Assembly (NCBI GenBank): GCA_030583805.1
Contig: CP129476.1
Location: forward strand, 818,497-882,496
Source of the DNA: Patescibacteria group bacterium
Lineage (GTDB): Bacteria > Patescibacteriota > Patescibacteriia > SG8-24 > DYFX01
Length of the DNA stretch: 64,000 nt
Direction: 5' to 3'
The notes below the pieces were generated by a model. It was not told the origin of the DNA. It ran no database searches and saw nothing but the letters and a program-made list of their open reading frames with translations. The stretch's first letter is position 1, and every line of letters starts with the position of its first letter. Below, piece by piece: positions 5,621 through 61,901 of this stretch. Made by a program: the position numbers and the translations under genes.

Positions 5621-6025
5621 ATGACCTACCCGCCCCAAGACGCGTACCGTGAAGCGAACCAAGGCTTCAGCAAGTTCGTAGTCATGCTCCTCACGATCGG
5701 GGCGCTCACCGCGCTCGCGCTGGCGGTCACTCGCTACGCGCCCGCTCAGGACGCCGGCGACCTCGCCCTGAAGCTCGCTGTTACCGGCTTCGTGGGATGG
5801 CTCCTGGCGCTCGTCGCCAGCGTCTACACCTGCAAGAGCGGCGGCAGCGGCAATCTCGGACTCGCAGTCGTCTTCCTGTTCCTGCATATCGGCGCGATCA
5901 TCATGTGTCTGGTGTTCGTCTCGAACGCGGGAACAAGCGGAGGCGTGGCCATGGTTCACCAGGTCTTCCAATGGATCCTGATGGGCTTTCAAGCGTTCTT
6001 CCTGCTCCTCGTCACCTACAACTGA
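5621..6025 (+). CDS. Hypothetical polytopic membrane protein.
   Basis: Internal ATG (MTYPPQDAYREAN...) of ORF 5462..6025; 4 TM segments. The N-terminal extension of the ORF is Arg/Pro-rich and was rejected. Confidence 0.5.
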   Translation: MTYPPQDAYREANQGFSKFVVMLLTIGALTALALAVTRYAPAQDAGDLALKLAVTGFVGWLLALVASVYTCKSGGSGNLGLAVVFLFLHIGAIIMCLVFVSNAGTSGGVAMVHQVFQWILMGFQAFFLLLVTYN

Positions 6026-23942: not shown

Positions 23943-24017
23943 TGGGGCGGCCAGAGGGAATTGAACCCTCGTTCGCGGAACCACAATCCGCTGTCCTACC
24001 ATTGAACGATGGCCGCC
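23943..24017 (-). tRNA. tRNA-His (GTG) with an encoded G-1 and an encoded CCA.
   Basis: Cloverleaf: G-1, acceptor GCGGCCA / TGGCCGC, anticodon loop TTGTGGT, T-arm GAGGG-TTCAATT-CCCTC. Coordinates +/-2. Confidence 0.85.
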
Positions 24018-24021
24018 ATGC

Positions 24022-24098
24022 TGGTGTCCCCGGCAGGAGTCGAACCTGCAACCCTCGGGATAGAAGCCCGATGCTCTATCCAATTGAGCTACGGAGAC
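24022..24098 (-). tRNA. tRNA-Arg (TCT) with an encoded CCA.
   Basis: Acceptor GTCTCCG / CGGGGAC, anticodon loop CTTCTAT, T-arm GCAGG-TTCGACT-CCTGC. Coordinates +/-2. Confidence 0.85.
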
Positions 24099-43746: not shown

Positions 43747-44364
<618 letters not shown>

Positions 44365-44380
44365 CTGCGAAAAAAAATAA

Positions 44381-44412
44381 GAGAGCCGGCCCGAGGGGGC
44401 TGGCTCTTTGCG
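44381..44412. terminator. Strong bidirectional terminator closing the minus-strand islet.
   Basis: agagccggcccgagggggctggctct, followed by ttgcgtt on the plus strand and by ttatttttttt on the minus strand. Confidence 0.55.
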
Positions 44413-44423
44413 TTCCGGCCGAG

Positions 44424-44657
44424 TTACGGCTGGAACGTCTTGTCGTCGGGTCCGAGTCTGTCGGGCCCGTCGAGCGAGTCGTGGATCATCCGCTCGAAGC
44501 GGTCGGTGTCCTCGATGGTGACGGGGATGGTACCGAGCGGCTGATCGGGATCGATGCCGTCGAAGACGGGATCGGCGCTCGGCTCGGCATCGTTCTCCGC
44601 GAGGTAGCGGAGGATGGCCTGGTCGAGGCTGTCGTCGGGCGGAACCTGATTCTTCAT
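44424..44657 (-). CDS. Islet ORF 9: small, highly acidic protein (77 aa).
   Basis: Asp/Pro-rich; its start overlaps the stop of the upstream gene by 4 nt. Confidence 0.45.
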   Translation of the reverse strand: MKNQVPPDDSLDQAILRYLAENDAEPSADPVFDGIDPDQPLGTIPVTIEDTDRFERMIHDSLDGPDRLGPDDKTFQP

Positions 44658-44908
44658 CGGATGCCTCCTTCTGCGAGGGCGAGGTTGGGCCCGTTCTCGT
44701 GGAACGGGACGTTGGTGGCGGGGATCGCCTTGTTGGTCGCCGGGTCGTGACGGCTCAGCTCAGCGTCCACCGTGCTTCCGGTCTCGTGGAGACCGTACGC
44801 GACGGCGCTGACCATGAGGAACACCATGACCGTGACGAACGTCTGGATGATCCAGGTGTTGAACTCGGTACGGTACCGGAGTCCGGTCTTCTGGGCGGTT
44901 TCGTCCAT
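44654..44908 (-). CDS. Islet ORF 8: single-TM small protein (84 aa).
   Basis: TM IIQTFVTVMVFLMVSAVAYGL. Confidence 0.45.
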   Translation of the reverse strand: MDETAQKTGLRYRTEFNTWIIQTFVTVMVFLMVSAVAYGLHETGSTVDAELSRHDPATNKAIPATNVPFHENGPNLALAEGGIR

Positions 44909-44923
44909 GTACGGTTCTCCGTG

Positions 44924-45355
44924 CTAGCGGTTGTCGCGCGGCTTGCTCGTGTCGTAGGCGGCCAGGAGCAAGCTCCGCCGCTCGTCGACGATGAACAAGA
45001 TCTTGATCTCGAAGTCCTTGAGCATCGTGTTGCCGTTCACGTCCGGGACCTTCTCATCGTTCATGTAGAAGGGTCGGGAGAGACTGAAGTCGCTCGCGAG
45101 CTCGCAGATGATCTCGCTGCGCTTCTCCTCGGGGTGAATGATGCCGCGCTCTTCGGACAGCCTGCGGTAGTTCCCGAACGCCTGCATCGTGACGAGCACC
45201 GTTCCGACATGCGGATTGGTGACGGTCACTGGCACGTTCGTGAGGCCGCAGGCGAGGATGTCGACGCCGTTCAGCATGAGATGGCCAGGCCGCTTGGGTC
45301 TCGGGTTGGGGGTGGAAGCGGGGGCTTCTGTGGCGATGGCACGCAGTGCGGGCAT
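44924..45355 (-). CDS. Islet ORF 7: hypothetical (143 aa).
   Basis: Preceded by intergenic element family 1, copy 1. Confidence 0.45.
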   Translation of the reverse strand: MPALRAIATEAPASTPNPRPKRPGHLMLNGVDILACGLTNVPVTVTNPHVGTVLVTMQAFGNYRRLSEERGIIHPEEKRSEIICELASDFSLSRPFYMNDEKVPDVNGNTMLKDFEIKILFIVDERRSLLLAAYDTSKPRDNR

Positions 45356-45394
45356 GGTGAACTCCGTCTGTGTGGTGGCGGGCGGTGAAGGAGC

Positions 45395-45480
45395 AGCCGT
45401 TTCAGGGCTCCGGCGTCCGGCAGAATTGCGCGGGCACCAGAGGCTGAAGTGGACACGATGTCCACCCAGAGGAAAGAACG
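45395..45480 (-). repeat. Conserved intergenic element family 1, copy 1 (contains the perfect palindrome GTGGACATCGTGTCCAC).
   Basis: About 85% identical to 46410-46498; lies between the stop of ORF 6 and the start of ORF 7. Confidence 0.6.
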
Positions 45481-45497
45481 AGGTGCGGCCGCGAACG

Positions 45498-46382
45498 TCA
45501 GGCGACGTTGGCCATCAGGTCGCGGGCGGCTTCGAGGTCGCAGGGATCCGCCATGGCCGCGGCCAAGGCGACGTGATCGGGGTTCTCGGGGTCGAGACCC
45601 TCGATCATCATGAACGCGAGGAGATCCGGATCGATCTTGGGCTCCTCGGCGGTGGCGTCCGCAACCTCGTGGGCGGCGTCGGTGTCGGCGACCGTCTCGG
45701 GCTCCGCAGCCTGGGGCGGGGTTTCCGTCTCGATGTCGTTCGCCGCTTGGGTCTGCATCACGTCCCGCGCGAGCGCCGCGAGCGGCGTCATCTTGGCACG
45801 AGCCTTCGCGCGTTTGTCGAGCTCGATCACGACCTTCTCGGCGAGCGCCATCATCGCATCGAGCTTGTCGAGCTGACCCTGGTGGGCCCGCTCGGCGCGC
45901 TCGATCTGCAGCGTATGCCGGATCTTGCCGGCCTCACGCTTGTACTGCTCGGCCAGCACCGTCGGATAGTACGCGGCCCAGAGTTCGAGGTGCGTCGCCC
46001 GGCGCTCCAAGTTGGAGGACGTGAGCGCGGCGATCTCGGACTGGAACTCCGCGGCCTTCCGCAGCTTCTTCATCGTACGCGTGTACGACAGCTGGCGCTC
46101 CAGACGCGCGATCTCCTGGTCGGTGCGCAGGGCGCACTCCCAGTTGTCGCGCATGCGGCGCTTGAGCTTGGCCGTCTCGGCGTCGCACGGCGGCTTTGCG
46201 TAGAACGCATCGAGCTGCGTCTTCATGCGCGCGATCTGCACCGGCGCGGTCTCGATCTCCAACGTGTAGACGGCGAGCGTCTTCAGGTCTTCGCCGAGCT
46301 TCATGCCGGTCTTGACGTCGCTGAGAACGAACTCGTCGATCTGGCGGCACAGGTTGCGGAAACGGTTCAGGGTGTTCGTCAC
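45498..46382 (-). CDS. Islet ORF 6: coiled-coil protein with an acidic C-terminal region (294 aa, GTG start).
   Basis: Heptad-rich (LERQLSYTRTMKKLRKAAEF ...); RBS gaggtg. Confidence 0.5.
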   Translation of the reverse strand: MTNTLNRFRNLCRQIDEFVLSDVKTGMKLGEDLKTLAVYTLEIETAPVQIARMKTQLDAFYAKPPCDAETAKLKRRMRDNWECALRTDQEIARLERQLSYTRTMKKLRKAAEFQSEIAALTSSNLERRATHLELWAAYYPTVLAEQYKREAGKIRHTLQIERAERAHQGQLDKLDAMMALAEKVVIELDKRAKARAKMTPLAALARDVMQTQAANDIETETPPQAAEPETVADTDAAHEVADATAEEPKIDPDLLAFMMIEGLDPENPDHVALAAAMADPCDLEAARDLMANVA

Positions 46383-46409
46383 GGTGCACCTCGCTTGGTC
46401 AATGAACGT

Positions 46410-46498
46410 TGCGGTTCAGGGCTTCGGCGTCCGGCGGTATTGCGCGGGCGTCGGAGGCTGAAGAGGACACGATGTCCTCCCAGAGGGACGAAGAAAGG
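46410..46498 (-). repeat. Conserved intergenic element family 1, copy 2 (palindrome GAGGACATCGTGTCCTC).
   Basis: Same architecture as copy 1; the outermost palindrome positions differ in both arms so that the palindrome stays perfect. Confidence 0.6.
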
Positions 46499-46504
46499 AG
46501 CGGC

Positions 46505-47905
46505 TCAGCTGCGCGTGAGCGTCTGTGCGACGGGCGTGCCCGTGATGCTGTGAGCGTTGTAATACCACGTTCCGTCGTTGCTCCAAAGCATACCGTAGCC
46601 GAGCGCGCCTCCCGTGAGGACGTTCGCCAGCGTGGTGTCCACGCCGCTTCCGGCCAGGACGCCTTCCGCGAAGCCGGCGACGTCGCGTGCCAGCGTGGTC
46701 GTTAGCGTCTCACCGCTTCCGTCAGCGCCGCTGACAGTGAGTCGAAGCTCGAGGCTGACGGTCGTGCCGGCGGCGATAATGATCGGCTGGTCGAACACTA
46801 CTCCGGCGCAGACCTCCGAGGTGCTGGCGCCAAAGCCGCAGGTCTGCCCGGCATACCCCAGATAGGAGGTTCCGGCAAGATCGCCGCCCATGCCGAGCTC
46901 ACGAATCCTCGGGGCTTCGACCGTGATGGAAGGATTCGTGTTCACATGGAACGAGAGCTTCTTCACGTGGATGTCCGCACCGGTGTCGGCAGTGATCGCG
47001 ACGCGCGCAACGACTTGCGTGCCATTGGACAGCACGTTCGTCGGCAGCGGCAGCACGGAAATGACGGGCGTCGTCATCGGGACGGACGGACTGGTCGGCT
47101 CGTTGGCCACCAGGTTCGTGAACGGCCCGACAATGCCCGTGTTCGGATGGATATCCTCTACGAGCACCGGCGTTTCGTCGTCGACGCGAACCATGTCACC
47201 CAGCATCGGCGAACCGAGTTGGATCTGGATCTCCGTGCCGTCGAGCGCGACGTTGTTCGCCGTATCTAGGTAGACGCACAACTGCGTCGGCCGATGTGCT
47301 TCGAGGAGGATGATGTCGACGAGATCGATCGGCTGATACGTATCATTGCCTGTTGCATCAACGTCGCGCGGACCGGCCACGACGTTGATCCCGTACAACA
47401 CCTTTATGTCGGTGAAGTTCGGGCGGAGCGTCGCGGCGGACGTGTCGACGAGGCCGCCGGCGGCCGTGTTCTCGCCGATGGCGGCGATAAACATCCGCAG
47501 GCGGCGTACTTCGACATCGACGTTTGCCACGGCGGTGAAGCAGAACACGGGGATGTCCTGCGCGCCGACGGAGCGCTCGTACTGGAACCCGACGTTGAGC
47601 GCCATGTCCACGCGAGCGCGTTCGACCGGCGGACTTTCGGGATCCGGCGGCTCGACCACGACGATGTTGTCGCCGCAGTCCACGGGATCGTCACCTTCGA
47701 CGGTGACGCAGCCGGTCGCGAGCTTCACGATGGCGATCGCGAGGATGTAGAACGGGAGCCCGCGAAGGCTCCACTTCAGGAGCGTGATCTCACGGGGGTT
47801 GGAGCAGACGTTCTTCATTCCGGTCTCCTTGTTGTACGGTACGGCGGTTTTTGTCTGACGATGCGGTCGTTTCCGGCATCGGGCCCCGAAACATTCGGGA
47901 GCCAA
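46505..47905 (-). CDS. Islet ORF 5: large Thr/Val/Gly-rich lipoprotein (466 aa).
   Basis: Lipobox LATGC after an N-terminal TM/signal; beta-rich repetitive composition. Confidence 0.55.
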   Translation of the reverse strand: MAPECFGARCRKRPHRQTKTAVPYNKETGMKNVCSNPREITLLKWSLRGLPFYILAIAIVKLATGCVTVEGDDPVDCGDNIVVVEPPDPESPPVERARVDMALNVGFQYERSVGAQDIPVFCFTAVANVDVEVRRLRMFIAAIGENTAAGGLVDTSAATLRPNFTDIKVLYGINVVAGPRDVDATGNDTYQPIDLVDIILLEAHRPTQLCVYLDTANNVALDGTEIQIQLGSPMLGDMVRVDDETPVLVEDIHPNTGIVGPFTNLVANEPTSPSVPMTTPVISVLPLPTNVLSNGTQVVARVAITADTGADIHVKKLSFHVNTNPSITVEAPRIRELGMGGDLAGTSYLGYAGQTCGFGASTSEVCAGVVFDQPIIIAAGTTVSLELRLTVSGADGSGETLTTTLARDVAGFAEGVLAGSGVDTTLANVLTGGALGYGMLWSNDGTWYYNAHSITGTPVAQTLTRS

Positions 47906-47962
47906 TTGCGGAAGGGGAGGTCGTCACGCTCCCCGAGACTGAGATGAAGCGCGAACGCTTCA

Positions 47963-48130
47963 GACGACGGCGGCACCGACGCTGATCGCCAAGAGGGCGA
48001 TCAAGAGCAGGACAGCGAGCACTGCGCCGTGGCCGAAGGGCCAGTTGTACGCAGCCGAGTAGCGGCTGCAGTCCTCGTACCAGGCGGTAGCCCGGATCTT
48101 CTCGGTTGAGGCGGTGATCATCTTCATCAC
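47963..48130 (-). CDS. Islet ORF 4: micro-protein with a C-terminal TM (55 aa).
   Basis: MKMITASTEKIRATAWYEDCSRYSAAYNWPFGHGAVLAVLLLIALLAISVGAAVV; its start overlaps the ORF 3 stop. Confidence 0.35.
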
Positions 48131-48132
48131 GA

Positions 48133-48285
48133 GGCCTCGTTGAAGGTGCGGATGAACTCTTCGGCGTTCTCGAGCTCCTCCTCGTCGATGAGGAAGGCGC
48201 CGTCGATGCCGCGGAGGTCGTGCGGGGCGATCTCGATGATGATCTCGATCGAAGGACCGTATTCGGTCTGGTCGTGCATGGCGTA
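48133..48285 (-). CDS. Islet ORF 3: acidic micro-protein (50 aa).
   Basis: MHDQTEYGPSIEIIIEIAPHDLRGIDGAFLIDEEELENAEEFIRTFNEAS; preceded by family-2 element copy A. Confidence 0.35.
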
Positions 48286-48299
48286 GCTCCTGGTTGGTG

Positions 48300-48406
48300 G
48301 TTGTTGTGTCGATCTGTCCGACGCTCCTGTCGCACCATGCGGCAGAAGGTCCGGATGAATCGCCCCGCGGTTGCCCGCGGGGGATGAAGCGGATGGAGCG
48401 GAAGGA
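48300..48406 (-). repeat. Conserved leader element family 2, copy A.
   Basis: cccccgcgg-gcaa-ccgcgggg hairpin, then cgattcat ... ccttct ... cgcatggtgcga ... gatcgac ... cacaac, then ATG. Confidence 0.5.
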
Positions 48407-48898
48407 TCAGCGCTGGTTGCGGAGCTGCTCGCGGATCTCGCCGTCGTAGGGGACGAGGCCGCGGCCGCGCACGAGGACGGTGACGCACGTCTTGCGATCG
48501 GGCAGCTTGCTCCGATAGCGCTGCGCGTAGTTCTCGCACGAGCGCGGGCCGTTGGGCGGCTTGCGCTCGTTGGGCGTCAGGCTGGCGAGCGTCTCGGCGA
48601 CCTTCAGGCACAACGCGTCCTTGAGGTCCTCCTCGTCCGGCACGTACGGCTCGCTCTCGTCGATGATCTGATCGACCGTTTTGAAGACCGAGGTCTTCGC
48701 GCGAAGGTCGTTGTTGCCGTGATCGAGCTCGGCGGCGTCGTAGAAGTGATGGAACGAGGGCGCGTACCGGCTGACGAAGGAACCCTTCAGGTTCTCGGCG
48801 CGCAGGCGCCGGTCGTCCATCTCGTCGAGCGGCTTCGCGTTGAGCTTGGTCAGCAACTCCATGCCGGTCTTGGTCTCGGGCTTCGAGTAGTTGGACAT
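48407..48898 (-). CDS. Islet ORF 2: hypothetical (163 aa).
   Basis: Preceded by family-2 element copy B. Confidence 0.45.
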   Translation of the reverse strand: MSNYSKPETKTGMELLTKLNAKPLDEMDDRRLRAENLKGSFVSRYAPSFHHFYDAAELDHGNNDLRAKTSVFKTVDQIIDESEPYVPDEEDLKDALCLKVAETLASLTPNERKPPNGPRSCENYAQRYRSKLPDRKTCVTVLVRGRGLVPYDGEIREQLRNQR

Positions 48899-48917
48899 GT
48901 CAGGCCTCCTGCGGTGC

Positions 48918-49030
48918 GGGGTTGTGCGGTCGATCCATTCCGGCTCTCCTCATCGCACATGCGTGAGAAGGCCCAGAGTGATCGCCCCGCGGAAGAAGTT
49001 CCGCGGGGGAGGTGAGGAAGTGGGATGCGC
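48918..49030 (-). repeat. Conserved leader element family 2, copy B.
   Basis: cccccgcgg-aacttctt-ccgcgggg hairpin, then cgatcact ... ccttct ... cgcatgtgcga ... gatcgac ... cacaac, then ATG. Confidence 0.5.
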
Positions 49031-49314
49031 TAGGCGGCGGCGAGCCAGGGGTCGTCGGCGCAGCCGAGGAAGATCGAGATGTCGTCGGTCAGCTGGGCGC
49101 TGAGGTAGCCGCCGTGCTGCTTGAGGATCACCTGAAGATCCTCGTCGGCGCCCTCGATGAGGGCTTCGGCGGCGATCTCTTCGATGACGTCATGGGTGCG
49201 CGGCGAGCACTCCTCGAACGGATCGATCTCCGCGAGGAAGTTGTAGACGAGGCTGGCAAAGGGAAGGTGCGCGTGTGCTTTCATGGTCAGCTCCGGTGTG
49301 CAGGTGGACAACAC
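49030..49314 (-). CDS. Islet ORF 1: small acidic protein (94 aa).
   Basis: First gene downstream of the consensus promoter. Confidence 0.45.
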   Translation of the reverse strand: MLSTCTPELTMKAHAHLPFASLVYNFLAEIDPFEECSPRTHDVIEEIAAEALIEGADEDLQVILKQHGGYLSAQLTDDISIFLGCADDPWLAAA

Positions 49315-49345
49315 TTCTCAGTGGCGAACAGGATTGTTCGATGAA

Positions 49346-49385
49346 CCGAATATAACACAAAAACACGCTTTTGTCAATGGTTTCC
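49346..49385 (-). promoter_or_regulatory. Consensus sigma70 promoter driving the islet.
   Basis: Minus sense: TTGACA, aaagcgtgtttttgtgt (17 nt), TATATT. Confidence 0.6.
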
Positions 49386-49519
49386 GACAGAATAAATGCG
49401 GTAAAATAAGGCTAGAAACTGAGTGCTAGCCTTAAAAACGTCAATAAAACATGAAACATATTGTGAAACAGCAGGAGCATTTTCTTGACAGGTTTTATGC
49501 CACGTGGTAGTGTGCGACG

Positions 49520-49748
49520 TTGCTTGAGCACCGCGCTCGACATCCCTGTTACAGCCCGACCGTTTTCGGACCCATTCGCATCTGGTCTCTAGAAACTCGC
49601 GCTCACGACAAGCATGGAGGTATCTCATAGGGTACTTCGGGCTCCGGCTCGAACGCTTCTATAAGACACCTTCTTGAGCGCGATTTTCTGCAGACCACTC
49701 CGAAAACAATGGAGAAGAAAAAGACCCCGCACTGCGGGGTCTTTTGTT
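49520..49748 (+). ncRNA. Candidate ~225-nt non-coding transcript (putative promoter at 49485-49518, terminator at 49717-49748).
   Basis: TTGACA, 17 nt, TAGTGT; no ORF; long-range pairing of gttttcgga (49567) with tccgaaaac (49697); terminator gaccccgcactgcggggtc followed by ttttgtttc. Confidence 0.2.
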
Positions 49749-49750
49749 TC
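49717..49750. terminator. Bidirectional terminator (VanW gene / candidate sRNA).
   Basis: aaaaagaccccgcactgcggggtcttttgttt. Confidence 0.55.
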
Positions 49751-49751
49751 G

Positions 49752-51671
49752 TTATGGCGTCGGGGGCGTGTTCGTTGCGGAGGGAAGCGGCGCAAGTTCC
49801 TTGATAGACCCGTCGCTGCCGAGCACGATGCGCGGCGCGCCTGTCTTGCCGACGAGGCACTGCTGCTGCCAAGGCTTGTAGACGCTGCGGAAGTCCTGTG
49901 CCTTCACCGTGCCGTCCGGATACGTGATCGAATAGGTGAAGTTCGTCGTTGCTCCGGCGTGCGGGGATTCGAAACATTTTTTCACGCCTTCGGCCAGCTC
50001 GGATGTTTCGATCAGCTTCGGCTCGGGCGGCGGCGTGATGTTCCAGGTTTTGATCGGGCCCTGCTTCTGCACGCGACCATCACGCGTTCCCCAGAACTCG
50101 AACCGCGCAATGTCGCCGATGATCTTCGTGATCAAGACGGCGTGCGACTGCGTGTCGTTGATGAATTTGAAATCCGGTGCCGGGTCGTACAGCGTGGCGT
50201 CGGTGCCGGCCGGTTCGTAGTAGCGCACGCGATACGAATGGTTCTGCCGTTGCGTGATCGGAAGTCCGGCGCCCATCGTGGCGCGGAACGTCGTCGTGCC
50301 GATCTGGCAGAGACCGCCGCCATATTCCGGAACGGTGCGGTTGCCCTTGATGACGAGTTCGGGCACGTAGCCGCCGGAAGCGTCGAACGGCTTCAAGTAG
50401 TCGATGAGACCGATCTCTTCTCCCGGCTTGATGATGATGCCGTTCAGGCGCGCGGCGCCGTTCGCGATGTTGATGCGGCGATTCTTCGGGCTGCCGGAAA
50501 AATTCGACGTGCCGTAGCCGAGCAGTTCCGTGATGCCGAGCTCGACGGCAATCGCGTCGGAAGCCGGAGCGGCAACGGTCGTAACGGCGATCGGAAACAC
50601 CCCGTTCTCCGACGTGTCGAACAGCTCATCGAGGCGGGCCAGACTTGTTTCCTGATCGACTGTTTTACCGAGCGAGCCGCCTTGAAAATCTTTCGCGCGG
50701 CCGTCTTCGCCGATCGTGAACCGCGTCGGTTTCGGTTCGCTCTCGATCTCTTTTGCGGCGATGGCAAGGAGCGGTTCGATGACGCTGCGTTTCAAGGTCA
50801 GGCCGATCGAACCATCTTTTTTCTTCAATAAAACAAGGGCTTTTGCGATCTCCTCTTCCGACAACGACCAGGTAAGATCGTCGTAGGCCAAGCTTGCCTC
50901 GCCGCGCGCAAGCACCTGCTTCGCGCGGTCGACGAACGCTTCGGCTTCCGCCAACGTGATGTCGGGCGCTTTCGTCGTCGCCTGCAAATCGATCGCCGAG
51001 CCTTGCCAGCGCGCCAAGCCGGAAGCGGCGTGGTCGATGGCGCTGCCGTAATCGAACGTGACGCCCGTGGAATCGGGAGAAACGAGGATGCGCCAGTCGG
51101 GGCGCGTGGCGCCGCTGGAAGAAGCGTTGTTCACGGGAACGGAAACGCGTTCGATGGTGAACGCGGCGTCGCGCGCGGGCTGCTCAAGCTCGCCGAAGCG
51201 AAGCGTAAGCAACGCCTGAAGCGCGTCCTTGTCGACGACGAGTTGCACGGGTTGCTGCACGTCGGCGAAAAGCGCGCGCATGTTGGCGGCAATCAACTCG
51301 GCTTTTCCAGCCTCGTGTCCGAAGGCGAAGGCTGTTTCCACCATGCCGTCCAGGTCGTACGTTACGGGCGATTGCGTCGGCGAAGCGGCGCTCACGTCGT
51401 TCGCGCGCACGGTCAGCGAGCGGTCCTGGTAGCGGAACTGCACGCCGGCGACGTTCAGCGCGCGCAACGCGTTTTCCAAACGTTCCTTCGCTTCCGATGG
51501 CGTGAGACCGCCGACGTCGATGCCGCCGATCGTGACGTTCGGCAAGATGCGGCCGTCCGCGCGCACGACTTGTACGGCGATAAGACCCGAAACAAGCAGC
51601 AGACAAAAAACGCCTGCAAGCACCAGGTGTCTGGGAGAACTCGGCAGGAGTTTTTTGAGGCGGTCGAACAT
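49752..51671 (-). CDS. VanW-family protein (N-terminal TM, peptidoglycan-associated).
   Basis: GGGLCQIGTTTFRATMGAGL, the VanW signature. Confidence 0.8.
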   Translation of the reverse strand: MFDRLKKLLPSSPRHLVLAGVFCLLLVSGLIAVQVVRADGRILPNVTIGGIDVGGLTPSEAKERLENALRALNVAGVQFRYQDRSLTVRANDVSAASPTQSPVTYDLDGMVETAFAFGHEAGKAELIAANMRALFADVQQPVQLVVDKDALQALLTLRFGELEQPARDAAFTIERVSVPVNNASSSGATRPDWRILVSPDSTGVTFDYGSAIDHAASGLARWQGSAIDLQATTKAPDITLAEAEAFVDRAKQVLARGEASLAYDDLTWSLSEEEIAKALVLLKKKDGSIGLTLKRSVIEPLLAIAAKEIESEPKPTRFTIGEDGRAKDFQGGSLGKTVDQETSLARLDELFDTSENGVFPIAVTTVAAPASDAIAVELGITELLGYGTSNFSGSPKNRRINIANGAARLNGIIIKPGEEIGLIDYLKPFDASGGYVPELVIKGNRTVPEYGGGLCQIGTTTFRATMGAGLPITQRQNHSYRVRYYEPAGTDATLYDPAPDFKFINDTQSHAVLITKIIGDIARFEFWGTRDGRVQKQGPIKTWNITPPPEPKLIETSELAEGVKKCFESPHAGATTNFTYSITYPDGTVKAQDFRSVYKPWQQQCLVGKTGAPRIVLGSDGSIKELAPLPSATNTPPTP

Positions 51672-56436: not shown

Positions 56437-56859
56437 TTACGGCGTGGCCGTCGTGGCGCGGATGACCGCGTTGATGATGAAGCCGGTGAGCGCGTAGGCC
56501 AGGAAGATGATGATGAGACCGATGATGCACTGCTTGATGATCTCTTTGGCCTTGTCGATCGGGTCGCTCTCGCCGCGCGCCGTCATCCAGAGGAAACCGG
56601 CGTAGACCATGAGGACCAGGAAGATGATACCGAGGAGACCGAGGAGCGTGCGGATGATGCGGCCGATGATGAGCGGGAGCTGCTGGCCAGCCGTGGCGGC
56701 GTCGCCGCTGTTCGGGTTCGGATTGGCGGCGTTCAGGCAGCCAAGGGCGTTTCCGGTGCTCGGGTCGCAAGGAGCTTGCGCGCCGACGGGCATCGCGACC
56801 AGGGCCATCTGACTCATGGTGAGGAGCGAGATGAAACCCAGAAGAAGTTTCTTGAGCAT
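56437..56859 (-). CDS. TrbC/VirB2-like (T4SS-type) pilin paralog 1.
   Basis: Signal peptide, then IIGRIIRTLLGLLGIIFLVLMVYAGFLWMTARGESD ... IIGLIIIFLAYAL: the two-TM pilin core. Confidence 0.6.
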   Translation of the reverse strand: MLKKLLLGFISLLTMSQMALVAMPVGAQAPCDPSTGNALGCLNAANPNPNSGDAATAGQQLPLIIGRIIRTLLGLLGIIFLVLMVYAGFLWMTARGESDPIDKAKEIIKQCIIGLIIIFLAYALTGFIINAVIRATTATP

Positions 56860-56884
56860 ACGATGTGAGGTGATTAGCAGGGGA

Positions 56885-57223
56885 TTAGGCGCCGGCGGCC
56901 GGAGCGGCTGTTCTGGCGACTGCGTTCAGGACGAACGCGGCGATCGCGTAGGCGGCGGAGATGATGATGAGTCCGATCACGGCGTTCTTCAGCAGTTCCT
57001 TGGCGTGCTTCACCTTGGCATCATCGCCTTGCGCCGTCAGCCAGAGGTAGCCGGCGTAGATGATCAGCACCATGAAGACGATGCCGAGGAGCCCGATGAA
57101 GGTGCGTACGAGGTTGCCGATGAGTTCCGGAAGCGTGGTCGGCGAGTTGAGGTTGGCCGCTTCGGCGACGTCGAGCAGTTTGTCCGCACCGAAGTTCTGA
57201 GCCAGTTTTTGCATGTCAGCCAT
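56885..57223 (-). CDS. TrbC/VirB2-like pilin paralog 2.
   Basis: LIGNLVRTFIGLLGIVFMVLIIYAGYLWLTAQGDD ... IGLIIISAAYA. Confidence 0.6.
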   Translation of the reverse strand: MADMQKLAQNFGADKLLDVAEAANLNSPTTLPELIGNLVRTFIGLLGIVFMVLIIYAGYLWLTAQGDDAKVKHAKELLKNAVIGLIIISAAYAIAAFVLNAVARTAAPAAGA

Positions 57224-57234
57224 AGATGGGGCGC

Positions 57235-57804
57235 TTACGAGGCCTCAGCGCAGAGGCCGAAGCTGCAGGGCTGCGCTTCGCTTCCGATCGACGGGTCGCC
57301 CTCGCCGAGGCATTCGCACGTTCCGGTGTAGCAGTAGTTGCCGGGAACGCTGCAGTCCGAGGCGGTCGTGCACGTACGCGTCGTACATTCGTTCGTATCG
57401 ACCGTGATCGGCGTTGGGCCGTTCGGGTCGGACGCCGAGCCTGAGGAGGCTGTACCGGCTACGGCATTGATGACGAAGGCGGTGAGCGCGTACGACGCGG
57501 CGATGATGATGAGTCCCGTGACCGCTCCGGAAATGATCTTCTTTGCCGTATCGATTTTCTTGTCGTCGCCCCGGGCCGTCATGTAGAGAAAGCCGGAGTA
57601 GAGCATCAGGATCAGGAACAGGACGCCGAGATAACTGAGCACCGTCTGGATGAGCCGGCCGATCGTGGCCAGCAAGTCTTTGTTGCCTTTGAGCGAAGAC
57701 GGGGCGGCGGCATCAAGGCCGAATTGGGCGTAGACGTCGGGCAGTGCGACGAGCATGACGGCCACGAGGCACAGCGCCGGAAGAAGAATGCGTTTCAAGC
57801 GCAT
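57235..57804 (-). CDS. TrbC/VirB2-like pilin paralog 3 with a Cys-rich C-terminal extension.
   Basis: Pilin core IGRLIQTVLSYLGVLFLILMLYSGFLYMTARGDD, plus a C-terminal CTTRTCTTASDCSVPGNYCYTGTCECLGEG ... C. An alternative start lies at 57855. Confidence 0.55.
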   Translation of the reverse strand: MRLKRILLPALCLVAVMLVALPDVYAQFGLDAAAPSSLKGNKDLLATIGRLIQTVLSYLGVLFLILMLYSGFLYMTARGDDKKIDTAKKIISGAVTGLIIIAASYALTAFVINAVAGTASSGSASDPNGPTPITVDTNECTTRTCTTASDCSVPGNYCYTGTCECLGEGDPSIGSEAQPCSFGLCAEAS

Positions 57805-57915
57805 ACGTAGAGTGAGTTCAAGGGATCCGGAGATACCGGCGAACGTCGCCGGCATCTCCCGAGACCTTGTGACGACGCCCCGATTCGCATCGGGGCGTCG
57901 CGGTAAGGCGTTGTA

Positions 57916-58314
57916 CTAGGCGGTCGTAGCGGTCACGAGACTGTTGATCACGAACGATGCGATCGCGTAAGCGGTCAAGATGATGATCAAGCCGATAATA
58001 CCGGCCGTGATGATCTTCTTGGCGTCGCCGACGGCTTCATCGGAACCACCGGACGTCATCCATTTGAAACCTCCGTACAGGATGATCATAACGGCAATGA
58101 TACCGAGTAGGCTCATGGCCGTGCGGACGATACGCGCGATCGTGATGCGCAGGTCCTGCTGTTGCTGGCCGAGCTCGGTCGCGATTTGACCGGGCAGGAG
58201 CTCGTTGGACGTCACTGCACCCTGGGCCAAAGCGACCATCGGGAGCGCCATCGTCGCGAGCATTGCCGTACTGATCAGACCCTTGACAAGCGTTTTCTTC
58301 GTCATGCAAATCAC
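57916..58314 (-). CDS. TrbC/VirB2-like pilin paralog 4.
   Basis: IARIVRTAMSLLGIIAVMIILYGGFKWMTSGGSDE. Confidence 0.6.
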   Translation of the reverse strand: MICMTKKTLVKGLISTAMLATMALPMVALAQGAVTSNELLPGQIATELGQQQQDLRITIARIVRTAMSLLGIIAVMIILYGGFKWMTSGGSDEAVGDAKKIITAGIIGLIIILTAYAIASFVINSLVTATTA

Positions 58315-58327
58315 CTCCTTTCAGGCG

Positions 58328-58651
58328 TTAGCCCGTGATAGCCGAGAATACGAAGCGGACAAGTCCGTAACTGGTGAAGATCACCACGAGACCGATCGCC
58401 GCCCATTTCATAGCTTCTTTGCCTGCGCTCACTTTACCAGCCTCGCCACCCGAGGTCAACCAAATAAATCCACCATAGATGAAGACCAGCAGCGCGAGCG
58501 CGCCGACAATGCCGATCGCTGCTCTCAAAATATTGGCAATGAGTTCGGGAACCGAATTGGCGTTGAGCGGATTCTGCAATGTGATGGTTTCTTGGGCTGA
58601 AACGGCGAAAGGAACCAAGAATGCGGCGAGGATGGAAAGAATCTTTTTCAT
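58328..58651 (-). CDS. TrbC/VirB2-like pilin paralog 5 (minimal 107-aa form).
   Basis: Signal peptide, then LIANILRAAIGIVGALALLVFIYGGFIWLTSGGEAGK ... IGLVVIFTSYGL. Confidence 0.65.
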   Translation of the reverse strand: MKKILSILAAFLVPFAVSAQETITLQNPLNANSVPELIANILRAAIGIVGALALLVFIYGGFIWLTSGGEAGKVSAGKEAMKWAAIGLVVIFTSYGLVRFVFSAITG

Positions 58652-58654
58652 ACG

Positions 58655-59728
58655 TCAGGAAGAGGAAAGCGCGTTGAGCAAGATTGAGAGCACTGCGTAT
58701 GAAAGGAAGATCGCGGCGAGGGCGGACACGGTCGTCGTGATCATGCCGCGAGCCTCGGCGACTTTCTTTTCATCGCCCGCGGCGGTCATGTACTTGATGC
58801 CGCCCCAGATGAAGAAGACGAGCGCGATTGCGCCGACGACGCCGAGCAATGTGCGGATGACGCGCCCGATAACCGCAGGCAGACTGATGCTTCCAAGAGG
58901 CAAGGGGAGTGAAATCGCGCTTCCGCGTTCGGTGACCGATCCGGTTCCCGCCGGCGCGCTTTGTTCCATTTTTGCCAGCGCCGCCAGGATGGCGTCACCT
59001 TTACGGATCGCTTCCAAACACGCCCGGTAGCGAGCCTTTGTCTCTTCAGCGTCGGCGGCGCTCAAGTACGAAATGTAGAGGTCACCGCGAACGGTCAAGG
59101 TGCCCGCATCACAGAATTCCGAAAAGGCCATGAACGCATCGTGCTTAGCGCTATGGAATGCGATTTCGTCAGTAAAAAGCTGCGTTCCGGGTTCAATCGT
59201 CAAGCCTTCAATTCCACGCGTTGTACCGAAGGTGAGCACCCGATCGTTCACGTACATGTCGTTCGGAATGATCGTATAGTCGAAAGCGTTTTTGATCGCT
59301 TCCCACGCCGCCTGATCTTCCGGTACGAGCTCGGTGCGTTCGGAGAGGGTGATCGTTTCGCCATCGATGACCACGGTCGGTCGATAGGTATGCTCGCGCG
59401 CGCTTTGATTCAAGATGACGGCGAAGGATTCTTCCGCCAGTTTCCTGCCAGCCGAAAGATGGATGCAGTAGGTTTTCGCATCCGGCCTAGTCGACGTGCA
59501 GTTCGGAAATTGGTCTGCCAACGTGATCGTGCGTTCCGTGGCTCGAAGCGCCAAGTCGTAGTGACTTTCACAAAACGATCGATACTGCGCCGGCACTGGC
59601 GTAGCCGCTTCGGTGCAAGTTATCAATGGCAACCATAACGCTTTGGCAGCGAATGGCGCGGCAGCGACAAAGGCGATCGTGGCGCTGACCATCACTACTC
59701 CGAGCGTTCTTGCGGCAGAATTCTGCAT
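58655..59728 (-). CDS. Fusion protein: ~250-aa N-terminal extracellular domain plus a C-terminal TrbC/VirB2-like pilin core.
   Basis: C-terminal VIGRVIRTLLGVVGAIALVFFIWGGIKYMTAAGDE ... LAAIFLSYAVL. Confidence 0.55.
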   Translation of the reverse strand: MQNSAARTLGVVMVSATIAFVAAAPFAAKALWLPLITCTEAATPVPAQYRSFCESHYDLALRATERTITLADQFPNCTSTRPDAKTYCIHLSAGRKLAEESFAVILNQSAREHTYRPTVVIDGETITLSERTELVPEDQAAWEAIKNAFDYTIIPNDMYVNDRVLTFGTTRGIEGLTIEPGTQLFTDEIAFHSAKHDAFMAFSEFCDAGTLTVRGDLYISYLSAADAEETKARYRACLEAIRKGDAILAALAKMEQSAPAGTGSVTERGSAISLPLPLGSISLPAVIGRVIRTLLGVVGAIALVFFIWGGIKYMTAAGDEKKVAEARGMITTTVSALAAIFLSYAVLSILLNALSSS

Positions 59729-59734
59729 AGACGA

Positions 59735-60433
59735 TTAATTCAAGCAGCAAGCGAAGTCGGCAGGCTTGCTCGGGCAGAGGCCGCGTACGCAGCTCGAAGC
59801 GCCGCTCACGTTCTGGCAGCTGTAGACCTCGCCCCGTTGTCGCTTCTCGAGTTCGCTGTTGAGCGCCTTGCAATCGTCTTTCTTGATGCACACGACCGAC
59901 TCGGGAATGGTCTTTCCGTTGGGATCGATGCCGGCAGGGATTGAGACCCACAAACCGTCAGCCGCGGTGCAGAGCCCACCGTCGCAAACGCCGAGGCCAT
60001 TGCAATCAGCACTCGATGTGCATCCTCTCGGGAGACTCTTCTGCGCGGCAGCATTGCAGGATTCGCCGATCGTCGGGATCGCGGAAGTGCCACCTGTCAA
60101 CGCCTGGGTCGTGAAACGTACGAGGATGCCCGAGAGGAAGATGATGGCGATGCCGATGATCGCGCTCTTCAGGATGCCGATCGCCTTGCCGACCTTCGTC
60201 TTGTCTCCCGCGGCCAGGATGAAGGTAAAACCGCCGTACACGAAATAGAGCAGGGCCACGGCGCCGGAGATGCCGATCAGGTATTCGGCGGCATTGACGA
60301 AGGTGATCAGGATGTCGCTCACGCCGCAGTTGCCGCTTTCGGTGCATGGCGGCAAGAGCCTAATTTGGGCGGAAGCGGCAAAGGGAAGGATGGCGAGCCA
60401 GGCGGGAAGCGCGAAACGAAAAAGGCGTTTCAT
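59735..60433 (-). CDS. TrbC/VirB2-like pilin paralog 7 with a Cys-rich C-terminal domain.
   Basis: Starts at MKRLFRF (an internal Met of the 280-aa ORF); core ISGAVALLYFVYGGFTFILAAGDKTK; 12 Cys in the C-terminal 130 aa. Confidence 0.55.
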   Translation of the reverse strand: MKRLFRFALPAWLAILPFAASAQIRLLPPCTESGNCGVSDILITFVNAAEYLIGISGAVALLYFVYGGFTFILAAGDKTKVGKAIGILKSAIIGIAIIFLSGILVRFTTQALTGGTSAIPTIGESCNAAAQKSLPRGCTSSADCNGLGVCDGGLCTAADGLWVSIPAGIDPNGKTIPESVVCIKKDDCKALNSELEKRQRGEVYSCQNVSGASSCVRGLCPSKPADFACCLN

Positions 60434-60509
60434 ATCGTGAATAAGTGTAGCATAAAAACAACGATCCCGGCTTGAGCCGGGATGCGATGTGTGGACAGGC
60501 TTGTCGGGC

Positions 60510-61901
60510 TTAGCGGATCGTCTGGGCGATGGTCTGGATCGCCAGGTTGATGGCGCGGTTCGGGTCCACTCCCGCAAGTGTCGCGTCGATCATTTCGTCG
60601 AAGGCGCCCTCGGTAGCCGCGATATTTACGCCTTGGTACCAGCTTTTGGCCGTCAGGACTTGGGAGGCGAAGACGCCGAGATCCGGTTCGCTGAGCTGGG
60701 TGTTTACCAGGCTTCGGAGCGCCGTCGGCTTGCCTGTTTTGGCCAAATACAGCTTGGCTTGGTCGGCTTTTGCGGCGAATTGGACGAAATCCCAGGCGGC
60801 ATCGGGGTTTTTCGTCTTTTTAGAGACGGTTTCGACCCAATAATTGGCGTAATTGACCCTTGCGGCCGGGTCGATCTGCGGCACGTTCGTCAGGCTGAAG
60901 TTCAACTTGGGCGCCTGCGAGCGGATGCGCGGAAGGTGGTAGGAATAGCCGAAGAAATAAGCCGTTTTGCCCGAAACGAAGGCGTCGTAGGAGTTCGGCT
61001 GGGTGTCATCCCAGGTGAACACTTCCTTAGAGGGGTTGGCGAAATCCGTGTAGAAGACGAGTGCTTCCAGGCCGGGCGGCACCTCTCGGTCGAGGTTTTC
61101 CGGGGTGCGGTTGAAGGTCGGGATACCGTTGGCATCCGTCATTCTCGCGCCATTTTGCATCATGAGGAGCGAAAGAAGGTCGAAAGAACGCTCGACATTC
61201 TTCGAGGTACCGATGCCGACGGCCGGTTTTACGAGCTTTCCCTGGGCGTCATAGGCGGTCAGGCGCTTCACGTGATCCTGGAATTCCGCCCATGTCGTGG
61301 CGGCCGTGGGGATCCCGGCGGCGTTCAGCACGTCGCGGTTGTAGTAGAGCACCATCGTATCGAGCGCCATCGGCAAGCCCCAGAGCTGGTCGACGATGCC
61401 TTTGCCGGGCTCCTCGGCCTGGCCCTTGATGACGACGTCCCGGCTGACCTGGTCGACGAACTGGTCGCGTACTTGGGCCGGAGTGATGACAGGCAGCGTT
61501 TTTTCAACCCATACCGGGTTCTTTTGGACGCCCTGGATCTCGCGGAACGACATTTTCACCGAAGCCGGGGCGGGCAGGAGCTTGGTTTGATACGAGCGGA
61601 TCCAGTCGTTGTGCAAGGAGATGATGTCCGGTCCGCGGTCTTCGGCCAGGGCGTTCAAAAGCTCGCGCTCGTACTCTTCGAGCCGGAGCTTTCGGTAGTT
61701 GACGGTGACGTTCGGGTGGAGCGCGCGATAGGCGGCGACGATTTCGTCGAAGGAGTCGCTGTCATCGAGCACGCGCCAGTAGGTGAGGGTCAGGGGCTTC
61801 GACGACGCGGGCGCCGTTTGGAGATTCGAAGACAGACAGCCGGCACCGCTCACGACCAAAGCGGCCAGGAGGACGATTGAAGCGAGGCGGATGCGCAGCA
61901 T
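60510..61901 (-). CDS. ABC transporter substrate-binding lipoprotein (SBP family 1, sugar/oligosaccharide type).
   Basis: Starts at MLRIRLASIVLLAALVVSGAGC (lipobox); SBP_bac_1-like fold. Confidence 0.75.
   Translation of the reverse strand: MLRIRLASIVLLAALVVSGAGCLSSNLQTAPASSKPLTLTYWRVLDDSDSFDEIVAAYRALHPNVTVNYRKLRLEEYERELLNALAEDRGPDIISLHNDWIRSYQTKLLPAPASVKMSFREIQGVQKNPVWVEKTLPVITPAQVRDQFVDQVSRDVVIKGQAEEPGKGIVDQLWGLPMALDTMVLYYNRDVLNAAGIPTAATTWAEFQDHVKRLTAYDAQGKLVKPAVGIGTSKNVERSFDLLSLLMMQNGARMTDANGIPTFNRTPENLDREVPPGLEALVFYTDFANPSKEVFTWDDTQPNSYDAFVSGKTAYFFGYSYHLPRIRSQAPKLNFSLTNVPQIDPAARVNYANYWVETVSKKTKNPDAAWDFVQFAAKADQAKLYLAKTGKPTALRSLVNTQLSEPDLGVFASQVLTAKSWYQGVNIAATEGAFDEMIDATLAGVDPNRAINLAIQTIAQTIR

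Follow-up and report, generated by a model that had tools for sequence, protein, structure and literature searches.

Five intergenic spacers of a nine-gene islet in a Patescibacteria group bacterium carry structured modules, and the two upstream ones hold copies of a repeated element that folds into two adjacent hairpins. The islet lies on the minus strand of a 64-kb window, by which we mean the whole stretch of 64,000 nucleotides analysed here (assembly GCA_030583805.1, contig CP129476.1, positions 818,497 to 882,496). Unless a related locus is named, coordinates are positions in this stretch, and the islet genes are named p1 to p9. The conserved core of the element is a covariation-supported RNA motif that is absent from Rfam and confined to a very small clade, and breakpoints between related genomes coincide with it. 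We read it, with a probability of roughly 0.4, as an intercistronic module of mRNA processing or stability, the repeated copies of which double as crossover points for gene-cassette shuffling.

Copy B of the element is located in the p1–p2 spacer (49029–48899) and copy A in the p2–p3 spacer (48406–48280), in agreement with a first-pass annotation of the sequence. The local alignment of the two spacers scores 62, compared with 17.0 ± 2.6 (maximum 31) in dinucleotide shuffles (z = 17), and no further spacer pair of the operon aligns except the pair of another family, family 1 (z = 42). The shared blocks of the annotation are present in both, namely CCCCCGCGG-loop-CCGCGGGG, CGAT, CCTTCT, CGCATG(G)TGCGA, AGGAG, and GATCGAC, but those located 3′ of the GC hairpin are the two strands of a second, long hairpin rather than loose motifs. 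The annotation placed the GC hairpin right after the stop codon, whereas it actually begins 20–23 nt downstream, behind a C/U-rich tract. In addition, the repeat of ~105 nt is real as a repeat, but the conserved unit is a core of ~74–79 nt without the 'cacaac'/ribosome-binding-site block. That block is the leader of the downstream gene; the same core precedes unrelated sequence in two related loci, L016 and L018.

The core of copy B (48931–49009; B-type) scores 105 bits with a covariance model. Its hairpin P1 (49008–48985) has the form CCCCGCGG(AA)/(UU)CCGCGGGG with a variable loop, and its hairpin P2–P4 (48984–48931) is composed of CGAUC/GAUCG closing UCUGG/CCGGA, CUUCUCA/UGAGGAG, and CGC/GCG. 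The minimum-free-energy (MFE) fold of the core is −48.1 kcal/mol, and the z-score of the whole spacer is −3.1. The core of copy A (48310–48383; A-type; 80 bits) has P1 at 48382–48363 and P2–P4 at 48362–48310 (CGAUU/GAUCG, UCCGG/UCGGA, CUUCUG/CAGGAG, and CGCA/UGCG), and it adopts the MFE architecture of copy B, with −44.0 kcal/mol and a spacer z-score of −4.2. Each core is preceded by a C/U-rich spacer. That of copy B (49010–49029) runs from the p1 stop codon to the core, is G-poor, and contains the anti-Shine–Dalgarno-like sequence UCACCUCC; that of copy A (48384–48406) lies between the p2 stop codon and the core. The 3′ side is occupied by the gene-specific leaders of p2 (48899–48930) and p3 (48280–48309), which lie outside the core and consist of a C/A-rich linker and a Shine–Dalgarno sequence, GGAGG and AGGAG, respectively.

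In the B-type cores (48940–48899 in the window; 5503–5544 in L001), the P3 strand GAGGAG is followed by an AUG 7 nt on. In copy B, this AUG opens a reading frame of 12 codons, the end of which falls 1 nt short of the p2 start codon; in L001, it has the same frame as p2. As the A-type copies have no such AUG, it is probably incidental. Small open reading frames inside the element were considered and rejected as coding, since the AUG occurs in B-type copies only and the frame is broken by 1-nt indels among close relatives.

Proteins p1, p2, and p3 have one to two homologue clusters each among the 5.8 billion protein clusters searched. The contigs of these homologues and further cluster members yielded the related islets L001/L002, L016, L018, and L019/L020/L021, in the VanW...clpP context, and an extra fragment, L017, carrying the p3–p4 module alone. 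A covariance model built from five copies of the core was applied to the window and the related loci. It detects eight distinct copies at 65–105 bits; the window, L016, and L018 have two each, and L001 and L019 have one each. All eight are in the same orphan-gene islet and in mRNA sense; within the 64-kb window, the two copies in the islet, in the same orientation, are the only ones. The first-pass annotation had allowed for a chance similarity without conservation in homologous islets. The same core is, however, found in L001, L016, L018, and L019, and it is a genuine repeated cis element with a GC-clamp hairpin.

The eight copies share one fold. P1 is a hairpin of 8–10 bp consisting of G/C pairs throughout, and P2–P4 is an imperfect hairpin of ~54 nt with ~20 bp and small internal loops; there is no gap between the two. 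In P2–P4, CGAUY pairs with GAUCG (P2), UCYGG with YCGGA, CUUCUS with SAGGAG (P3), and CGCA with UGCG (P4). All eight copies fold individually to this two-hairpin MFE architecture, and RNAalifold returns the same consensus structure from a MAFFT alignment. Standard pairs fill 94.3% of the pair cells of the eight copies, compared with 39–53% when the 3′ partners are slid by 1–3 columns. Double-sided changes occur in seven pairs, compared with at most one in the slid controls, and none of 500 column shuffles attains the observed values of pairing, double changes, or covariation.

The changes are compensatory. In P3, a C–G pair of the B-type copies corresponds to a G–C pair of the A-type copies; in P2, an A–U pair corresponds to a U–A pair in L019 (CGUUC/GAACG). 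One position of P1 is occupied by G–C, A–U, and G–U, and the P1 stem of L019 is shifted but intact. P4 is either CGCA/UGCG or UGCA/UGCA, as read from the alignment, because the model mis-registers P4 in A-type copies. Broken pair cells are confined to the inner P4 stem, in which the model alignment is shifted by one register in the four A-type copies. The loop of P1 is freely replaced (GCAA, AACUUCUU, GGUCACAC, GACUGCAA, ACAU), while the stem is kept. On the sense strand, 19 cells hold G–U and none holds A–C, and one U–G pair of P3 is invariant across the copies. Therefore, the fold is specific to the transcribed sense strand, i.e., to RNA.

Sequence identity contributes less to the argument. 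When p1 and p3 are compared between the window and L001, L016, L018, L019, and L017, changes at codon position 1 exceed those at position 3, and the amino-acid divergence is 14–31%, whereas four-fold sites diverge by only about 6–15%. For p4, the DNA identity between the window and L001 is only 64%. All three are fast-evolving or diversifying orphan proteins. In genomes so closely related, a spacer identity of 90–100% is near the neutral expectation. We therefore discarded sequence conservation as proof of selection, and the case for selection rests on the compensatory changes and on the loop-versus-stem pattern. The low neutral divergence would also suit a functionless passenger, a local spacer duplication that persists as a harmless compact fold and looks conserved for want of divergence time. 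The core is, moreover, dispensable at the p2–p3 junction (see below) and limited to one islet of one small clade, as such a passenger could be. Nevertheless, a passenger would not be expected to keep its pairing through changes on both sides of seven pairs, to show no broken pair cells outside the mis-registered P4 stem, or to keep the P1 stem under a freely replaced loop; two other, unrelated families in the same operon also keep the two-hairpin layout. We consider the neutral explanation unlikely and leave it a slim chance.

The order of genes around the core differs among the five genomes. The window reads p1-[B]-p2-[A]-p3-p4. L001 reads p1-[B]-p2-p3-p4, with a 49-nt spacer lacking a core between p2 and p3; L016 reads p1-[B]-pX-[A′]-p2..., pX being a gene of 117 aa; L018 reads p1-[B]-pX′-[A]-p3-p4, with a pX′ of 95 aa and without p2; and L019 reads p1′-[A-like]-(113-aa gene)-p3-p4..., with 28 nt and no core in front of p3. 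The position of p2 is thus taken by pX in L018, and pX is located upstream of p2 in L016. All five genomes have a core 3′ of p1. In four of them it is of the B type, being kept directly 3′ of p1 in L001, L016, and L018 as in the window, and the CTCACCT flank 3′ of p1 is kept in all five. On the downstream side there is no such constancy: the core in front of p2 is B-type in the window and L001 but A-type in L016, and p3 has a core in front of it in the window and L018 but none in L001, L019, and L017. Likewise, the p2 leader follows an A-type core in L016, the B core is followed by unrelated sequence in L016_1 and L018_1, and the p3 leader occurs without any core in L001, L019, and L017. Since p2 and p3 are preceded by differing cores or none, the core is not bound to one downstream gene. 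The annotation's reading of the element as a leader of the two downstream genes is not sustained, as the core does not travel with p2 or p3 across genomes.

Instead, the core marks the positions at which the genomes diverge. Between the p1 stop codon and the final base of the core (GGATCGA), L016 and L018 have an identity of 96–97%; past the core, they are unalignable for ~185 columns, up to the middle of pX. The segment of pX and A′ that is inserted in L016 relative to L001 begins directly after GATCGA and ends with GATCGAC. The indel that distinguishes the window from L001 in the p2–p3 spacer ends exactly at the boundary between GATCG and ACACAAC. In addition, the A copy of L018 (L018 3099–3185) is chimeric. 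Its 5′ flank and P1 loop have an identity of 0.90 to L016_2, the copy after pX, and 0.76 to window copy A, whereas its P2–P4 domain has an identity of 1.00 to window copy A, which precedes p3, and 0.85 to L016_2. Therefore, the crossover is located in the invariant sequence CCGCGGGGCGAT. Together, the mosaic boundaries at the core indicate that recombination within or at the edge of the repeats has inserted, deleted, and exchanged the intervening genes.

The same boundaries support the strongest rival of our reading, in which the core is a DNA-level recombination or mobile element, either a folded-strand site resembling the attC sites of integrons and used by a recombinase or a small non-autonomous repeat; its hairpins would be retained for the needs of recombination, and any effects on the mRNA would be incidental. 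Orthologous spacers either have or lack the core, alternative genes are flanked by direct copies, three independent mosaic boundaries fall exactly at GATCGA, the 3′ edge of the core, and one breakpoint lies inside the invariant CCGCGGGGCGAT. As in integron cassette arrays, promoterless and co-oriented orphan genes are each followed by an imperfect palindromic element of ~60–140 nt, and genomes differ in gene content by whole cassettes, the 3′ end of the element being the boundary. Edge-of-homology breakpoints are, however, equally expected from ordinary homologous recombination. The structure differs as well. attC sites recombine as a folded bottom strand, whereas the G–U pairs of the core place the fold on the coding strand, and two hairpins are found rather than one long bulged hairpin. 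R″/R′ boxes (RYYYAAC...GTTRRRY) have no regular-expression match on either strand of the islet. Terminal inverted repeats, as in miniature inverted-repeat transposable elements, are not present in the element either, only 2–4 of 15 terminal bases being complementary, and no duplicated flank indicative of a target-site duplication is seen at the window/L001 indel. Searches for a recombinase (integrase), transposase, or reverse transcriptase domain among the 9 islet proteins and 20 neighbouring proteins within about ±15 kb were negative, and the window has only two copies in 64 kb, in one orientation. We regard the DNA-level explanation as rather improbable on balance.

An extended version of this rival is that the islet is a cassette-exchange platform of the candidate phyla radiation (CPR), in which the cores and the two other structured families would be folded sites for an unrecognised recombinase, the gene of which would lie elsewhere in the genome or in a partner or host, and orphan genes for surface and host-interaction proteins would be captured and exchanged as units. 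We hold this to be a long shot; if true, it would be a functionally integron-like system with a new kind of site. A template and variable repeat pair of a diversity-generating retroelement was also considered and rejected, as both copies are intergenic, their differences are not adenine-specific, and no reverse transcriptase domain is encoded in the islet or by the neighbours.

The arrangement of the operon favours a role in the mRNA. The islet comprises nine same-direction orphan genes between a VanW-domain gene and clpP. The first gene, p1 (49030–49284), encodes an acidic orphan protein of 84 aa and always has the core on its 3′ side. It is followed by p2 (48407–48898), which encodes an orphan protein of 163 aa and is the 'cassette' between copies B and A, by p3 (48127–48279), which encodes an acidic orphan protein of 50 aa and the stop codon of which overlaps the p4 start, and by p4 (47960–48130), p5 (46505–47818), p6 (45498–46382), p7 (44924–45355), p8, and p9. 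A promoter scan identifies a sole promoter-like site in 44000–50000, a strong sigma-70-like promoter upstream of the islet (49349–49377; TTGACA-17-TATATT, extended TG), which is kept in L001, L018, and L019. The same scan finds no sigma-70-like site in or near the element, contrary to the proposal of internal promoters in the annotation. The operon ends in a canonical terminator hairpin (44368–44408; −24.4 kcal/mol) with a U-tract, shared head-to-head with clpP, so that the nine genes have one promoter and one U-tract terminator. The annotation had also argued that the element is not a simple terminator. In accordance, a terminator scan finds none in the element; the GC hairpin is stable and is followed by CGAUCACUCU or CGAUUCAUCC rather than by a U-tract, whereas real terminators in the genome have A/U tracts, and the post-stop hairpins elsewhere in the window are ordinary terminators of this kind.

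Spacers of 122–142 nt are found at the p1/p2, p2/p3, p4/p5, p5/p6, and p6/p7 junctions, and the p3/p4, p7/p8, and p8/p9 junctions are overlapping or tight. Structured modules (the present element, which is family 2, family 1, and the p4–p5 element) occupy all of the long junctions and none of the overlapping or tight ones. This distribution, over all long and no translationally coupled junctions, fits a punctuation of the mRNA. We propose that the islet operon would be transcribed from the single strong promoter as one RNA and that the modules would punctuate this RNA into the translational units p1, p2, p3–p4, p5, p6, and p7–p9. An imperfect hairpin of ~20 bp with internal loops has the classic shape of an RNase III-type substrate, and an endonuclease could cut in or beside the long P2–P4 hairpin. 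P1 might then block 3′-to-5′ exonucleases and give the segments differing stabilities, as in selective RNA processing and stabilisation (SRPS). If RNase protection holds, the position of P1 suits protection of the upstream cistron at its 3′ end better than capping of the downstream cistron at its 5′ end. In SRPS, the stability of the intercistronic stem-loop sets the abundance of the upstream segment, and stem-loops of about −20 to −25 kcal/mol raised the expression of the upstream gene in a reporter (PMC10667835). P1 is within the range reported for this effect, with about −20 to −25 kcal/mol in all eight copies, in which it is located 8–25 nt past the stop codon. As direct repeats of ~80 nt between genes, the copies would act as portable homology, and recombination within or at the edge of the core would insert, delete, or swap the intervening orphan genes between related genomes.

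Several points weigh against this proposal. We infer the processing of the RNA, the stabilisation of the upstream segment by P1, and the involvement of a nuclease only from layout and analogy. The genomes are so close that sequence conservation by itself says little, the covariation derives mainly from few lineages (A-type, B-type, and L019), and the alignment used for the pair counts was fitted by the covariance model itself. The fold energies of sense and antisense strands differ by a small gap that is reversed in two to three copies and is not decisive. Since the core is dispensable in front of p3 in L001 and L019, any regulatory role is not essential. Finally, the scan for further copies covered 64 kb of the 1.17-Mb genome.

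The flanks of the core suggest two other functions in the RNA. The first is translational control or insulation, in which the C/U tract after the stop codon pairs with the next Shine–Dalgarno sequence and the core keeps stop and start close, so that translation of the downstream gene would depend on ribosomes completing the upstream one, a structure-mediated coupling. Indeed, the Shine–Dalgarno sequence is predicted to pair with the post-stop C/U tract in most spacers, with a probability of 0.8–0.97 in wB, wA, L016_2, F1a, and F1b, and the B-type copies have UCACCUCC, which we take to be identical to the anti-Shine–Dalgarno core of the 16S rRNA 3′ tail, directly before P1. Shuffled spacers, however, reach or exceed the observed pairing in a fraction of 0.05–0.90, so that composition alone explains it. 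The register of the pairing is not conserved between orthologues (L001B, L016_1, and L018_1), and the core-less spacer of L001 has the same weak pairing. A closing helix between anti-Shine–Dalgarno and Shine–Dalgarno sequences was accordingly rejected, being predicted in many spacers but no better than in shuffled ones. We judge the translational explanation quite unlikely.

The second is an action on transcription, as a Rho-loading or attenuation site like lambda tR1 or as a processive antitermination RNA like HK022 put or Bacillus EAR. Both flanks are strongly C-rich and G-poor. In lambda tR1 (rutA-boxB-rutB), a hairpin is looped out between such flanks; the put sites of HK022 are RNAs acting on RNA polymerase and EAR is an intra-operon spacer RNA of Bacillus, and the two directly adjacent hairpins of the core resemble put RNAs. 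Against this, no Rfam family is matched even at E ≤ 5, there are no internal terminators to read through, and antitermination would not need as many as five elements, of three unrelated sequences, within a single 5-kb operon. An element of this type has, in our view, only a small probability.

The other long spacers have the same layout as the core with unrelated sequence. The p4–p5 element (47871–47934) consists of hairpin 1 (47934–47914; GGGGAG/CUCCCC) and hairpin 2 (47913–47871; UUCCG..AUUGG..UCCCGAA/UUCGGGG..CCGAU..CGGAA); about 100 nt hardly vary among four genomes, and the few differences are in loops. Family 1 has copy a in the p5–p6 spacer (46383–46504), with a covarying hairpin 1 (GAGGAC/GUCCUC) and then a conserved long hairpin 2, and copy b in the p6–p7 spacer (45356–45497), with a hairpin 1 (GUGGAC/GUCCAC) that is compensatory relative to copy a. 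Across family 1, hairpin 1 covaries or is swapped (GAGGAC/GUCCUC, GUGGAC/GUCCAC, GGGGACG/CGUCCCC, and a nested insertion), while hairpin 2 is conserved. L019 holds both family 1 copies (4625–4768 and 5669–5832), which differ in their hairpin-1 sequences. The p4–p5 element and family 1 share a C/U-rich tract, a G/C hairpin of 6–8 bp, a directly adjoining long hairpin closed by a 5-bp helix, a C/A-rich linker, and a Shine–Dalgarno sequence. The remark of the annotation on an unusually elaborate internal cis-RNA architecture is borne out by this common two-hairpin layout.

Some further features of these and neighbouring regions were observed. One family 1 copy of L019 has a nested extra hairpin in the loop of hairpin 1, and the family 1 spacers flank p6 as those of family 2 flank p2. 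Upstream of the islet, between the VanW terminator (49719–49745) and the islet promoter, 49560–49710 in minus-strand sense forms a near-perfect, rod-like hairpin of ~150 nt (RNAalifold, −62 kcal/mol), which is nearly invariant in L001, L018, and L019. It has three G–U pairs on the minus-strand sense, its G+C content is below that of its surroundings, and it has no credible Rfam match, with sub-threshold noise at its edge only. It could be an unknown non-coding RNA or a palindrome with a regulatory role upstream of the islet.

The islet proteins are annotated as hypothetical only (QY323_04610–04620), and Pfam and PHROGs searches of all nine yield no significant family. AlphaFold2 models are unusable, with a mean pLDDT of 35 for p7 (single sequence) and 45 for p2 (two-sequence alignment). 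In p5 (46505–47818; L001 6558–7454; L019 2780–4624), a lipoprotein-like N-terminus, …LATGCVTVEGDDP, is conserved, and the remainder is wholly different in sequence and length, the proteins having 437, 298, and 614 aa in the window, L001, and L019, respectively; judged by its sequence, p5 looks like a variable surface protein. Neighbouring proteins include malic enzyme, DHH phosphoesterases, an SMC/RecN-like ATPase, T4SS-pilin-like proteins, and a solute-binding protein. Five genes with a T4SS-pilin domain (PF18895) are located beside the gene of a solute-binding protein at 56437–60577 on the minus strand. Two adjacent tRNA genes (23946–24098, minus strand) are the only Rfam matches in the window.

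An Rfam search of the window at gathering thresholds gives no match to the element itself, and relaxing it to E ≤ 5 in 44300–49800 yields nothing but noise. An exact-block pattern, GCGGGGCGAT-N7-11-CCTTCT-N1-3-CGCATG, was tried on GTDB genomes, JGI metagenomes, and IMG/VR and rejected, as all 13 matches are due to chance: they are in unrelated taxa, mostly in coding sequence, and all negative with the covariance model. The pattern is too strict, as it would miss even L016 and L019. IMG/VR was also searched with a looser pattern and with the p3 protein, and the entire islet was compared with 50,697 phage records by blastn; none of these searches gave a match.

CPR bacteria, or Patescibacteria, are uncultured episymbionts with tiny genomes, in which post-transcriptional control and the remodelling of orphan islets are almost uncharted. 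The five related genomes amount to a natural experiment, in which the motif marks the positions of gene swaps. Our hypothesis is that a single short structure both punctuates the mRNA and provides portable homology by which genes are shuffled; if true, it would provide a handle for finding other hypervariable islets in CPR genomes.

Among known systems, the core resembles transcribed intergenic repeats such as REP/BIME, ERIC/IRU, Correia/NEMIS, BOX, and RUP (reviewed in PMC2229807 and PMC3184786) in being a small structured repeat in transcribed spacers, the presence of which is polymorphic between relatives. Repeats of this type alter the stability or processing of mRNA and promote rearrangements (PMC2229807, PMC3184786). 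They occur genome-wide, in tens to hundreds of copies and both orientations, and many have terminal inverted repeats, whereas the core has two copies in 64 kb, in one islet and one orientation, and no inverted termini.

With SRPS, the core shares a stable hairpin in a polycistronic spacer, just past the stop codon and without a terminator tail, in all eight copies. The early genes of phage T7 have a repeated family of RNase III processing hairpins inside one transcription unit. Unlike SRPS and T7 sites, the core combines a GC clamp of variable loop with a sequence-conserved long hairpin, and three unrelated families occur in one operon; the likeness to SRPS is one of layout. The combination of GC clamp and long hairpin is not a described family.

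The PeSLs are mobile regulatory cassettes of T4-type phages, composed of a strong sigma-70 promoter and an effective terminator stem-loop (Arbiol et al. 2010, PMC2839356; Comeau et al. 2014, PMC4122927). Like PeSLs, the cores are short repeated stem-loop motifs that separate small orphan genes of a hyperplastic region, and close relatives differ by insertions, deletions, and replacements that arise when copies recombine; in the window, L001, L016, and L018, they flank orphan genes and mark the boundaries of indels and replacements. Unlike PeSLs, they have neither promoter nor U-tract, carry a second long conserved hairpin, and are located on a CPR chromosome rather than in a phage. If our reading is true, the PeSL principle would hold in a cellular chromosome as well as in T4-type phages.

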